Shown here one piece after another: positions 5,270-12,090 of a DNA stretch of 64,000 bases. Where the stretch lies: the NCBI RefSeq assembly GCF_058153355.1, contig NZ_CM177019.1. One strand, written 5' to 3'. How positions within the stretch are numbered: the stretch's first letter is position 1; the number at the start of each line of letters is the position of its first letter. Below the pieces are notes generated by a model. That model was not told the DNA's origin. It was given only the letters and a program-made list of their open reading frames with translations, and did no database searches. The translations under genes were made by a program, and so were the position numbers.

Positions 5270-5304
5270 TAATGCATCTTTCCAGGGCATTTTGTGCATA
5301 AAAA

Positions 5305-5326
5305 CAGGGCGTAATGCCCTGTTTTG
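5305..5326 (+). terminator. Rho-independent terminator after mipA
   Basis: Hairpin CAGGGC-gtaat-GCCCTG followed by TTTTG. Confidence 0.5.
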
Positions 5327-5358
5327 CATTACGGTGGTGCAATACCTGGGAGGAAACA

Positions 5359-6213
5359 ATGCAACAAAAAATGATTCAATTTAGTGGCGATGTCTCACTG
5401 CCAGCCATAGGGCAGGGAACATGGTATATGGGCGAAGATGCCAGTCAGCGTAAAACAGAAGTTGCTGCACTACGCGCGGGCATTGAACTCGGTTTAACCC
5501 TCATTGATACCGCCGAAATGTATGCCGATGGCGGTGCCGAAAAAGTGGTTGGGGAAGCATTAACCGGTCTGCGTGAGAACGTCTTTCTCGTCTCTAAAGT
5601 CTATCCGTGGAATGCTGGCGGGCAAAAAGCGATAAATGCATGCGAAGCCAGTTTACGCCGTCTCAATACTGATTATCTCGATCTCTACTTATTACACTGG
5701 TCTGGCAGTTTCGCTCTCGAAGAGACTGTCGCAGCGATGGAAAAATTGATCGCCCAGGGAAAAATCCGCCGCTGGGGCGTTTCTAACCTTGATTATGCCG
5801 ATATGCAGGAACTCTGGCAGCTGCCGGGGGGAAATCAGTGTGCCACTAATCAGGTGCTTTACCATCTCGGTTCACGAGGGATTGAGTATGATCTACTCCC
5901 CTGGTGCCAGAAACAGCAGATGCCGGTGATGGCTTACAGTCCATTAGCCCAGGCCGGGCGGTTGCGCAATGGACTGTTAAAAAATGCGGTAGTCAACGAA
6001 ATTGCACATGCTCACAATATCAGTGCGGCACAAGTATTGTTGGCGTGGGTAATCAGCCATCAGGGTGTGATGGCGATTCCAAAAGCGGCAACTGTCGCAC
6101 ATGTCCAACAAAATGCGGCTGTGCTTGAGGTTGAACTTTCGTCAGCGGAATTAGTTATGCTGGATAAAGCGTATCCGGCACCAAAAGGAAAAACTGCGCT
6201 GGATATGGTGTGA
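5359..6213 (+). CDS. yeaE: Aldo-keto reductase YeaE
   Basis: ORF 5314-6213; start placed at internal ATG giving MQQKMIQFSG (284 aa). Confidence 0.85.
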   Translation: MQQKMIQFSGDVSLPAIGQGTWYMGEDASQRKTEVAALRAGIELGLTLIDTAEMYADGGAEKVVGEALTGLRENVFLVSKVYPWNAGGQKAINACEASLRRLNTDYLDLYLLHWSGSFALEETVAAMEKLIAQGKIRRWGVSNLDYADMQELWQLPGGNQCATNQVLYHLGSRGIEYDLLPWCQKQQMPVMAYSPLAQAGRLRNGLLKNAVVNEIAHAHNISAAQVLLAWVISHQGVMAIPKAATVAHVQQNAAVLEVELSSAELVMLDKAYPAPKGKTALDMV

Positions 6214-8239: not shown

Positions 8240-8568
8240 CTATTTGTTAGTGAATAAAAGGTTGCCTGTAAAATTACAAAAACCTTACGCAGCGTCAAGC
8301 GGAATCGTGTCAATCATTGCGACAAATCAATCCTGTGCCTAAGCATTATGCGACTGACTCGCCTCACTCTTCCTTTGGGCTTGAGACCACATGGGGTCGG
8401 CGCCCCGAATTTTAAAGGGCAATTACGATAAAAATGTGATTTTCATCACGATTTAGGTGCAGCCATTTCGTCGAGATCAAGTTTAGGACAAAATTTTGCC
8501 AGTTGGTGTTAATGTTTTGTTGGAATCAGTCACGTAATGTGAGTACGATTAAAGTGAGATGTGAGCAA

Positions 8569-8982
8569 ATGGCTAATAAACCTTCGGCAGAAGAACTGAA
8601 AAAAAATTTGTCCGAGATGCAGTTCTACGTGACGCAGAATCATGGGACAGAGCCGCCATTTACGGGTCGTTTACTGCATAACAAGCGTGACGGCGTATAT
8701 CACTGTTTGATCTGCGATGCCCCGCTGTTTCATTCCCAAACCAAGTATGATTCCGGCTGTGGTTGGCCCAGTTTCTACGAACCGGTGAGTGAAGAATCCA
8801 TTCGTTATATCAAAGACTTGTCACATGGAATGCAGCGCATAGAAATTCGTTGCGGTAACTGTGATGCCCATCTGGGGCATGTCTTCCCCGACGGGCCGCA
8901 GCCAACGGGTGAACGTTATTGTGTTAACTCAGCCTCTTTACGCTTTACCGATGGCGAAAACGGCGAAGAAATCAACGGTTGA
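8569..8982 (+). CDS. msrB: Methionine sulfoxide reductase B
   Basis: 137 aa from [12 protein letters not shown]; two CxxC zinc motifs ([19 protein letters not shown]). Confidence 0.9.
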
Positions 8983-9023
8983 AAAAACGATTCAGCAACT
9001 TATTCCACAGGAGCGGAAAAATT

Positions 9024-9296
9024 ATGAATCTTGATGACATTATCAACAGCATGACGCCTGATGTATACCAGCGTTTGTCGACTGCCGTTGAGCTGGGGAA
9101 ATGGCCCGATGGCGTTGCGCTGACCGAGGAACAAAAAGAGAACTGCCTACAGCTGGTGATGCTGTGGCAAGCCCGCCATAATACCGAAGCACAGCATATG
9201 ACAATTGACACACATGGTCAGATGGTTATGAAGAGCAAACAACAGTTAAAAGAAGATTTTGGTATCTCAGCAAAGCCTATTGCCATGTTTAAATGA
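9024..9296 (+). CDS. yeaC: DUF1315 family protein YeaC
   Basis: 90 aa from MNLDDIINSMTPD; synteny downstream of msrB. Confidence 0.8.
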   Translation: MNLDDIINSMTPDVYQRLSTAVELGKWPDGVALTEEQKENCLQLVMLWQARHNTEAQHMTIDTHGQMVMKSKQQLKEDFGISAKPIAMFK

Positions 9297-9464
9297 TTGA
9301 ATTATTCAGCTTTTTGAGTCTGTTATTAAGTGCGAACAAAAATACTTGTTTGACGTCTTGATTGTTCGATTTAGCGGTTGATAGGTTAAATGCAACACTG
9401 ACGAGTATAACCTGGCCTACGATGTCAATGAGGAAATGTAGGCCAGAGATGTATTCAACTAATA

Positions 9465-10106
9465 TTACTCCTGCGTCTCTTCCCAGTCTGCCAGCGTATA
9501 TAGCGTTGCCCCAGCTGCTGACATCTCCATAAACGCGTGCGCACTGTCCTGTGGCTGGATATTCACGCCACGACAACCATCGGTAATCACATTAACCTTA
9601 TAACCTAACTGTAACGCGTCCAGCACGGTAAACTTCACGCAATAGTCAGTAGCCAGGCCCATAATGATCAATTCATCGATTTCATGATCGCGTAACCAGT
9701 CATCGAGCGTGGTTTTCTGCCGACGGCCGTTATCAAAAAAGGCACTGTAACTGTCAACTAAAGGATTTTCGCCTTTATGGAACACCGCTGCGATCGCTTT
9801 TTGGTTCAGTAACGGATGTAATTGTGCGCCTTCACTGTTCTGCACACAGTGATCTGGCCAGAAGGTTTGTGGCAAACCGTCGAGTTGGCCTGGCGTATAA
9901 GGCTCTACACCGTGCTGACTGGCAAAACTGCCGTGATTCGCCGGGTGCCAGTCTTGACTGGCGATAACCGCTTCACCGCGCGACTGGCACCAGTCAATCA
10001 GGCGGTTAGCGACATCCACCGTACTGTCACCTTCCGGCACGGCGAGCGCGCCACCAGCACAGAAATCATTTTGTAAATCGACCAGTAACAGGGCGCGAGG
10101 GGGCAT
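9465..10106 (-). CDS. pncA: Nicotinamidase/pyrazinamidase
   Basis: ORF 9465-10124 trimmed to MPPRALLLVDLQNDF (213 aa); isochorismatase-like fold motifs. Confidence 0.9.
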   Translation of the reverse strand: MPPRALLLVDLQNDFCAGGALAVPEGDSTVDVANRLIDWCQSRGEAVIASQDWHPANHGSFASQHGVEPYTPGQLDGLPQTFWPDHCVQNSEGAQLHPLLNQKAIAAVFHKGENPLVDSYSAFFDNGRRQKTTLDDWLRDHEIDELIIMGLATDYCVKFTVLDALQLGYKVNVITDGCRGVNIQPQDSAHAFMEMSAAGATLYTLADWEETQE

Positions 10107-10116
10107 TGCAGTCTCC

Positions 10117-11133
10117 TTAATCATCCGGCGTCAGTTCGCCGCGCAGGTTTTGGCTCATGGCCTTGCGAATGGTTTCAGTATCCAGTTCCTGGCTAAGCAG
10201 GTAATGCAGTTTGGTTAGCGTGGCTTCTACAGTCATATCTGCACCGCCAATAACGCCGGCATGGGCGAGGGCGTTACCGGTGGCATAACCCCCCATGTTC
10301 ACTTTACCGGACATACATTGTGTCAGGTTGACTACCACAATTCCGCGATCGCTGGCTTCTTGTAATTCTTGCAGGAAGGCTTTGTTTTGTGGCGCATTAC
10401 CCACGCCATATGAGCGCAGAATCAATGCTTTCACCGGTTGGCGCAGAAAATTGCGCACGACGTCAGCAGAAATCCCCGGATAAATCGTCACTACGCCAAT
10501 TGGTTGTGGGGTGATTGGATGAACGATCAATTCCCCTTCACCGTGCGGGGCTGGGGGGGTATTCAAACGACGAATGTGGATACCTGCTTCCAGTAACGGA
10601 GGAAGGTTTGGAGAGGCAAACGCATCAAAACCATCGGCATGGGCTTTGGTGGTACGGTTGCCACGATAAAGTCGATTATTAAAAAAGAGAGTTACTTCGT
10701 TGATAGGATAATTCGCCGCAACGTACAACGCATTCAGCAGATTAATTTGTCCGTCAGAGCGTAACTCAGCCAGCGGGATTTGTGACCCTGTCACAATGAC
10801 CGGTTTACCGAGATTCTCGAGCATGAACGACAGCGCAGAGGCGGTATACGCCATCGTGTCGGTGCCGTGCAGAATGACAAAACCATCATAGTCGTCATAA
10901 TGCGCTTTAATATCTTCAGCAATATGCTGCCAGTCTTCTGGCGTCATATCTGAAGAGTCCATCAGCGGCGTATATTCATGAATGGTGAAATCTGGCATCT
11001 CCGGGCGATGGAATTCCGGCATCAGCGCCAGTTGGCGTTGTAGATGACCTGACACCGGAATATAACCCTGCTCGGAACGCTGCATCCCGATGGTCCCGCC
11101 CGTGTAGGCGACGTAAATTGATTTCTTTTGCAT
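10117..11133 (-). CDS. ansA: Cytoplasmic L-asparaginase I
   Basis: 338 aa, MQKKSIYVAYTGGTIGM with TGGT active-site threonine motif. Confidence 0.9.
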   Translation of the reverse strand: MQKKSIYVAYTGGTIGMQRSEQGYIPVSGHLQRQLALMPEFHRPEMPDFTIHEYTPLMDSSDMTPEDWQHIAEDIKAHYDDYDGFVILHGTDTMAYTASALSFMLENLGKPVIVTGSQIPLAELRSDGQINLLNALYVAANYPINEVTLFFNNRLYRGNRTTKAHADGFDAFASPNLPPLLEAGIHIRRLNTPPAPHGEGELIVHPITPQPIGVVTIYPGISADVVRNFLRQPVKALILRSYGVGNAPQNKAFLQELQEASDRGIVVVNLTQCMSGKVNMGGYATGNALAHAGVIGGADMTVEATLTKLHYLLSQELDTETIRKAMSQNLRGELTPDD

Positions 11134-11264
11134 GATATTGATATGAATGATATCGAAAGAGCAAAAGTATATACGTGAGGGGCAGCGAGCGCACCTGGTT
11201 ACTCTGTGGATATGAGAAAAGTCCGGCAGAACGGAGGGATTAGTGTCCCGCCGGAGAAAAGTGG

Positions 11265-11987
11265 TTAATCCTGCAACGCATAGGTTACGGTGGTGACTAC
11301 GCGTACCGTTTTATTAATCGCCGTAGGATCATCTTCATCACTGCCACTGGCGAAGATCTGGAACACGCCTTGTGAGGCATCGCTAATTGACCCCACCTGG
11401 CTACCTGAGTCCGTTGCAAATTGTAATGCTGCGTTGCGTGCATCTTTGGTGGCGGCGGCAATCATCTCAGCGCGCAGTGCGCCAATACCATTAAAGCGAT
11501 AGGCGACTTTGCTCTCAGCGATAGCGCCCTCCGTAGCGACTTGCAGTTCGTTTAATTTCGCGACGACTTTTTCGACAGCAGCAACATTATGGGTTTTTAT
11601 CGTCACTGACCCGTCTGCGTTATAGCGTGGCATTGTGGGATCATCTTTCAGATAAAAGGAATCTGTTCGCTTGCTTTTCCATTGGCCCAGGGTTATCTCT
11701 TTCTCGTTAATCCCCTGAGCATTGAGTTCGGCAACAATTTTTTTCTGCGCGTCTTCCAGTTTCGGGAACAGTTCGCCGGGAATATTACCCTTAAAGTTAA
11801 TCGCAATTGTTAATTCTGCCGTATCTGCGCGAACTTCTTTTTCAGAAAGCCCACGCACATTTACATAACGGTTATTGGTTTTTAAATGTTTAACACCATC
11901 GCCAACAAAATAACCACAGGCGCTAATCCCCAGTCCGAGGACGATAGCGGCAATTAAAGAGGGGGCCTTATTCACTGATAACTCCAT
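11265..11987 (-). CDS. Putative lipoprotein, tentatively SIMPL/DUF541-like periplasmic protein; not recalled at this position in K-12
   Basis: ORF 11265-12077; most plausible start ATG at 11987 giving MELSVNKAPSLIAAIVLGLGISAC (signal peptide plus lipobox ISA-C); about 240 aa; codirectional between sppA and ansA. Confidence 0.6.
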   Translation of the reverse strand: MELSVNKAPSLIAAIVLGLGISACGYFVGDGVKHLKTNNRYVNVRGLSEKEVRADTAELTIAINFKGNIPGELFPKLEDAQKKIVAELNAQGINEKEITLGQWKSKRTDSFYLKDDPTMPRYNADGSVTIKTHNVAAVEKVVAKLNELQVATEGAIAESKVAYRFNGIGALRAEMIAAATKDARNAALQFATDSGSQVGSISDASQGVFQIFASGSDEDDPTAINKTVRVVTTVTYALQD

Positions 11988-12090
11988 ATCAGATGCTAAA
12001 TGAGCAAGGGAATGTAGTGGAGAGAGGGAGTGAAAGACAGTCCGATTCAGGAGTGTGGCCGACAGCATATCGGCCACATTTTTGCAGGAT

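Follow-up and report, generated by a model that had tools for sequence, protein, structure and literature searches.

Results

Gene layout at the yeaC-pncA junction

The junction analyzed here raises the question of how yeaC and pncA, which are separated by an eight-gene block in E. coli K-12, came to adjoin each other, and whether this arrangement is an ancestral empty site or the product of a deletion. The DNA consisted of a single stretch of 64,000 nucleotides (the window), in which the gene order around the junction is gapA (-), msrB (+), yeaC (+), pncA (-), ansA (-), a SIMPL-domain gene (-), and sppA (-). The genes yeaC and pncA are convergent, and the RefSeq annotation of the nearest genome gives the same genes in the same order. 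The sequence and the list of open reading frames bear out the original prediction that yeaC ends at 9296 and pncA, on the minus strand, at 9465, with 168 bp between them. The features of the junction are as follows.

9024-9296, + strand: yeaC (DUF1315 protein, 90 aa; stop codon TGA at 9294-9296), from the ORF list, Pfam DUF1315 (E = 1e-27), and the annotated yeaC of EC42405
9297-9464, unstranded: yeaC-pncA spacer of 168 bp, ydj-less haplotype, from the sequence
9297-9345, unstranded: yeaC-proximal part of the spacer, weakly homologous to the initial ~50 bp between yeaC and ydjL in K-12, from local alignment
9346-9376, unstranded: approximate zone where ydj+ haplotypes hold the ydj block (ydjL promoter region to ydjE stop), placed where the K-12 junction homology ends on either side
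9377-9464, unstranded: pncA-proximal part of the spacer, homologous to the entire ydjE-pncA intergenic region of ydj+ genomes, from alignment
9465-10106, - strand: pncA (nicotinamidase/pyrazinamidase, 213 aa), from the ORF list, Pfam isochorismatase (E = 5e-34), and the annotated pncA of EC42405

The two ends of the spacer are related to the K-12 junctions to different degrees. Local alignment of the left-hand part gave 23/35 identities to K-12 and 25/34 for the spacer of the SCPM-O-B-8794 genome, which is borderline evidence of homology; given this weakness, the limits of the 9346-9376 zone are approximate and the breakpoints uncertain. The pncA-proximal part has 53/78 identities both to K-12 and to MFDS1019527, a ydj+ genome of the same lineage as the window, and 61/78 to Escherichia sp. 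E1V33. When the left 99 bp of the spacer were compared by low-stringency BLAST with all fetched loci, only window-type genomes were matched, and this part of the spacer is thus not derived from any ydj sequence. The last codon and stop of yeaC are AAA TGA in the window and AAG TAA in ydj-carrying genomes.

The absence of the ydj block was confirmed by a comparison of the Ydj proteins with the whole 64-kb window, in which there was no true match, the sole hit being that of YdjG to its paralogue yeaE at 27% identity. An Rfam scan of positions 8300-10300 at a permissive threshold returned one chance-level hit inside pncA and no known RNA family in the spacer, and promoter and terminator scans of the spacer gave nothing convincing.

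Two further observations were made close to the junction. The SIMPL-domain (DUF541) gene between ansA and sppA (11265-11975, - strand, within a polymorphic region at 11134-12090) constitutes a second presence/absence polymorphism, two genes away; K-12 does not have it, 943 of the 5,426 complete E. coli genomes (17%) do, and it also occurs in Escherichia sp. MOD1-EC7003. In E200086 (locus L004, 8220-8678) and eight similar genomes, all close relatives of the window, an IS200/IS605 transposase gene lies between the SIMPL gene and sppA, and it is absent in the window.

Distribution of the ydj block in E. coli

The gene order of K-12 given in the original prediction proved to be correct: two MG1655 records agree on the order yeaC, ydjL, ydjK, ydjJ, ydjI, ydjH, ydjG, ydjF, ydjE, pncA, in which the eight-gene block takes up ~9.1 kb and about 9.17 kb separate the yeaC stop from the pncA stop. 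The block is present in 4,336 of 5,426 complete E. coli genomes (79.9%), with IS insertions in some copies, and yeaC and pncA are contiguous in 1,089. These two states together account for 5,425 of the 5,426 genomes, an 80/20 dimorphism, and in the complete ydj-less genomes the block has no match anywhere in the genome. Huddleston and Raushel, of the Raushel laboratory that studied YdjH and YdjI, reportedly put the ydj cluster in 2019 at about 80% of sequenced E. coli genomes.

The products YdjH and YdjI are named L-glycero-L-galacto-octuluronate kinase and aldolase in NC_000913.3, and the block contains metabolic, transporter, and regulator genes only. Across E. coli the block is 97.7-100% identical, which amounts to core-like divergence, and its GC content is 46.4% compared with 48-52% for the flanks. 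No sign of a mobile island (integrase, transposase, tRNA, or IS element) was seen in or around the block, and no direct repeats of at least 7 bp were found at its borders in K-12. In a published survey the ydj genes were treated as an accessory operon, with ydjI prevalences of 97% and 30% in phylogroups A and B1, respectively, and of 100% in each of B2, D, and E (PMC9602453, Table 2).

The window shares with this presence/absence polymorphism of ydjLKJIHGFE both the locus and the two states, and the ydj-less state seen here is an ordinary accessory-gene polymorphism that has already been documented. It differs from the ydj-less state found mostly in B1 in that its spacer variant is rare and its closest match, EC42405, belongs to cryptic clade I and not to B1. 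The suggestion that the locus is an indel hotspot needs a qualification: within E. coli the pattern is a clean two-state dimorphism with occasional IS insertions, and a variable slot is supported only across the genera of the Enterobacteriaceae, as described below.

Spacer variants and closest relatives

Among complete genomes, N96 and EC42405 come closest to the window, both with 99.4% identity over 10 kb, and the genome is therefore not K-12, as had been proposed from the missing block. The spacer is matched at 100% only by EC42405 and at 96% by N96, and a variant at least 96% identical to it occurs in 3 of the 5,426 genomes. Over its full length it is ~79% identical to the common ydj-less form, which is 160 bp long and occurs in ~1,044 genomes, including the O111:H- strain 11128, a strain of phylogroup B1. 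The ydj-less spacers form a family of 160-173 bp that comprises the window lineage, the common E. coli form, and the divergent Escherichia SCPM-O-B-8794, whose msrB-yeaC flank is 10-13% diverged; the mutual divergence within this family is about 25-30%.

One study (PMC10100065) shows EC42405 together with strains of cryptic clade I, and another (PMC9203756) uses it as the outgroup of E. coli. By sequence similarity at the yeaC-pncA locus, the genome of the window is most like cryptic clade I.

The spacer was observed to be much more diverged than its flanks and to be mosaic (9297-9464 of the window against 5298-5457 of locus L004, 5298-5465 of L005, and 6398-6557 of L003). E200086 differs from the window by 0-0.7% in the flanks and carries a left spacer half of the common type, which is about 30% different. 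In N96 the left half of the spacer is of the window type and identical, and the right half has six differences within about 60 bp. This mosaicism suggests either very short recombination patches or the reshuffling of old haplotypes.

One fetched locus was of another kind. The 1.3-kb contig CALMKU010000237.1 (L010), assigned to an 'uncultured Tolumonas sp.' metagenome-assembled genome, encodes an MsrB identical to that of K-12 and a YeaC 98% identical to that of the window, and is most likely E. coli contamination of the Tolumonas bin.

The spacer hairpin and its relation to REP elements

The spacer contains an inverted repeat that had been described as a 9-bp perfect repeat ending in a REP-like GGCCTAC motif. 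Its two features are the following.

9412-9420 / 9438-9446, unstranded: hairpin, 9-bp perfect inverted repeat CTGGCCTAC / GTAGGCCAG with a 17-nt loop, from the repeat search
9403-9456, unstranded: extended imperfect palindrome GAGTATAACCTGGCCTAC ... GTAGGCCAGAGATGTATTC, from the minimum-energy fold of the + strand, its stem lengthened by G-U pairs

The arms are 100% complementary, and they form the sole inverted repeat found in positions 9200-9560. A comparable repeat (9 bp perfect, loop of 3-25) arose in 314 of 20,000 shuffles of the spacer (1.6%). The fold energy of the hairpin was -16.9 kcal/mol in the pncA sense (z = -3.3) and -23.8 kcal/mol on the + strand (z = -6.0). When nine diverged Escherichia alleles, some of them ydj+ and others ydj-, were aligned, the arms (8 bp, TGGCCTAC / GTAGGCCA) proved invariant, and 70 of the 92 other columns and 10 of the 17 loop positions were variable. 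Fisher's test for the invariance of the arms gave p = 4e-9, a significance that is overstated since the alleles are related.

The relation of the GGCCTAC motif to REP elements was upheld in two ways. A canonical REP at 20161-20194 of the window opens with the same 9-mer, GTAGGCCAG, as the hairpin arm, and intact BIMEs (REP...GGCCTAC, a short linker, GTAGGCC...REP) lie directly after the pncA stop in other genera, namely in Enterobacter hormaechei, Kosakonia cowanii, Silvania confinis, 'Escherichia' sp. ESNIH1, and others. As in a REP/BIME, the GTAGGCC heads of the hairpin (9438-9444 on the + strand and 9414-9420 on the - strand) face each other over a short linker, 17 nt apart, and are extragenic at the 3′ end of convergent genes, in the same position as the intact BIMEs after pncA. 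In contrast to a REP/BIME, the hairpin has the internal GC-rich palindrome GCCGGATG...CATCCGGC on neither side, so that the heads alone remain; the sequences that flank them (GAGTATAAC... / ...AGATGTATTC) do not contain the GC-rich stem found inside the imperfect REP palindrome of about 35 nt. The hairpin resembles what would be left of a degenerate BIME, its core, the BIME being two inverted REP elements that would once have stood downstream of pncA.

No repeat feature is annotated in the K-12 pncA-ydjE intergenic region (NC_000913.3), and GTAGGCC is not enriched in the window (6 observed compared with 4.7 expected). The canonical REP itself, GTAGGCCAGATAAGGCGTTCACGCCGCATCTGGC (20161-20194), follows closely on the 3′ end of an ORF (20222-21565) that from the K-12 gene order is presumably gdhA.

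A classical intrinsic terminator was also considered for the hairpin. An intrinsic terminator scan of positions 8900-9900 on both strands returned no terminator-like site, and neither arm is followed by a T-run; despite the stable stem, this candidate is ruled out by the absent U-tract.

The yeaC-pncA slot across the Enterobacteriaceae

An ancestral empty site would mean that the adjacency of yeaC and pncA is original in Escherichia, that ydj was inserted later, and that the ydj-less genomes never received the block. We regard this history as possible but on balance unlikely. It draws on the gap of about 50-330 bp between yeaC and pncA in Salmonella arizonae/diarizonae, Kosakonia, Phytobacter, and several Enterobacter and Citrobacter genomes, on the spacer having parts homologous to both block junctions, as expected for an insertion into a pre-existing spacer, and on the GC content of the block, which is slightly below that of the flanks. 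However, the ydj block occupies exactly the same slot in other Escherichia, Citrobacter, the Klebsiella oxytoca group, and Intestinirhabdus, and in E. coli it is mainly in B1, a nested phylogroup, that the slot is empty.

The block lies exactly in the slot in E. whittamii, Escherichia sp. E1V33, Citrobacter amalonaticus S646, Intestinirhabdus alba, and an uncultured Enterobacteriaceae genome, and it follows about 2 kb of extra sequence in C. braakii, C. youngae, C. portucalensis, C. gillenii, Klebsiella oxytoca, K. grimontii, K. michiganensis, and K. spallanzanii. Because it is found in the same slot across Escherichia, Citrobacter, and Klebsiella, the occupancy of the slot is at least as old as the genus. 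Insertion of the block into a spacer leaves the same junction pattern as a deletion that spared its ends, and the polarity of the change is thus unreadable from sequence. The adjacency of the two core genes does not, by itself, tell an ancestral empty site from a deletion.

A layout like that of the window is seen in S. enterica subsp. arizonae and diarizonae, where gaps of about 270 and 180 bp, free of genes, lie between the convergent yeaC and pncA. The Salmonella spacers, however, do not align with the window spacer and carry their own REP-like sequence. S. Typhimurium LT2 presumably has the same yeaC-pncA order.

In other genera the slot holds further genes (loci L015, L022, L032, L054, L059, L070, L075, and L079). 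A gene for an HNH nuclease (about 114 aa) and/or a secreted GH18 glycosyl hydrolase (417 aa) was seen there in Citrobacter, Enterobacter, Klebsiella, Trabulsiella, and Kluyvera; the extra ~2 kb of C. braakii (L032) is read as an HNH gene plus a GH18 gene, and the GH18 gene is seemingly fragmented in K. pneumoniae ATCC 13883 and in Citrobacter sp. On2M. In Kluyvera and Pseudocitrobacter the slot carries a cluster of at least 8 kb with putative monooxygenase, ABC-transporter, and regulator ORFs. The slot is variable across the family, which supports the term hotspot in that wider sense.

Two other Escherichia loci differ from those described so far. In the type strain of E. albertii, NBRC 107761 (L008, 8882-9330), the 449 bp after yeaC match neither ydj, nor pncA, nor any fetched spacer type, and the contig ends there; the slot may hold yet another occupant. 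Escherichia sp. MOD1-EC7003 (L007, 10271-10378) has a third kind of ydj-less junction of 108 bp, in which K-12-type sequence follows yeaC, with an identity of 52/58 to the left junction. This junction does not contain the GGCCTAC hairpin and has a different one, AAATGCCCG...CGGGCATTT, adjoining pncA. It looks like an independent deletion.

Comparison with ydj-carrying genomes of the same lineage

A recent deletion would consist of a single loss of ydjL-ydjE, illegitimate or by short homology, from an ancestor that resembled the ydj+ genome MFDS1019527. The existence of very close relatives that carry ydj and have identical flanking proteins speaks for such an event, as does MOD1-EC7003, whose junction does resemble one. 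MFDS1019527 shares its YeaC, PncA, and SIMPL protein accessions with EC42405 and N96, and yet it carries the full ydj block; its flanks are identical to those of the window at 1487 of 1500 and 1690 of 1700 positions (99.1-99.4%). A second ydj+ genome that is nearly identical to the window, 2013C-4282, has been placed in clade I (PMC10100065).

The junctions of MFDS1019527 are of the K-12 type, and its ydjE-pncA intergenic region is only ~68% identical (53/78) to the corresponding part of the window spacer. A recent deletion would have left both this pncA-proximal half and the stop context of yeaC unchanged, and both differ from MFDS1019527. In addition, the common E. coli form and a divergent Escherichia lineage have spacers of the same family, and the borders of the block are without repeats. 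A recent deletion is thus highly improbable. As far as comparison of the junctions can date it, the state of the window is shown to be that of an old ydj-less haplotype, and the alignment of the region, which had been put forward as the way to choose between an ancestral empty site and a deletion, serves to exclude a deletion of recent date.

An assembly collapse or misjoin at the junction has a negligible likelihood, as yeaC and pncA are likewise contiguous in 1,089 genomes that were finished independently, and the EC42405 spacer is 100% identical.

Discussion

The reading that we favor, and consider probable, is that yeaC-pncA is the site of a long-standing polymorphism with two alleles, of which the window has the ydj-less one, that the alleles have been exchanged as cassettes, and that the hairpin is a BIME core. 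The first allele consists of the ydjL promoter region and ydjLKJIHGFE, ~9.1 kb in all, a cluster for sugar-acid breakdown, and the second of the 160-173 bp spacer. Since the alleles are strongly diverged between the two stop codons and the flanking genes are near-identical, the alleles behave as old cassettes. Most likely the strains would exchange these cassettes through homologous recombination, with yeaC/msrB and pncA/ansA as the anchors on the two sides, and the copy in the window would have been inherited or imported as such a cassette. The evidence for recombination is the mosaicism of the spacers, with no recombination tract directly detected. Old balanced alleles and repeated import from other Escherichia appear indistinguishable in the present comparisons.

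REP/BIME elements act as barriers to 3′-exonucleases and can attenuate transcription. From this general property and from the conservation of its arms, the hairpin is probably a shared 3′ stem-loop that would protect or delimit the converging pncA and yeaC transcripts.

A bolder account, which is speculative and in our judgment rather improbable, would make the ydj+ and ydj- cassettes a trans-lineage polymorphism long kept by balancing or niche-dependent selection. Such a polymorphism would be shared by E. coli sensu stricto, cryptic clade I, and one or more further lineages of Escherichia. The stop codons of yeaC and pncA would be its exact boundaries, and the conserved BIME-core hairpin would have a part in delimiting the exchange or in promoting it.

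The significance of the two-allele polymorphism described here is small, in that this is a locus-level description of a known accessory-gene polymorphism. What is added is that the ydj-less state represents an old haplotype that has a diverged and mosaic spacer of its own, the window variant of which is a possible lineage marker, and that the presence or absence of ydj segregates not only in E. coli proper but also within cryptic clade I.
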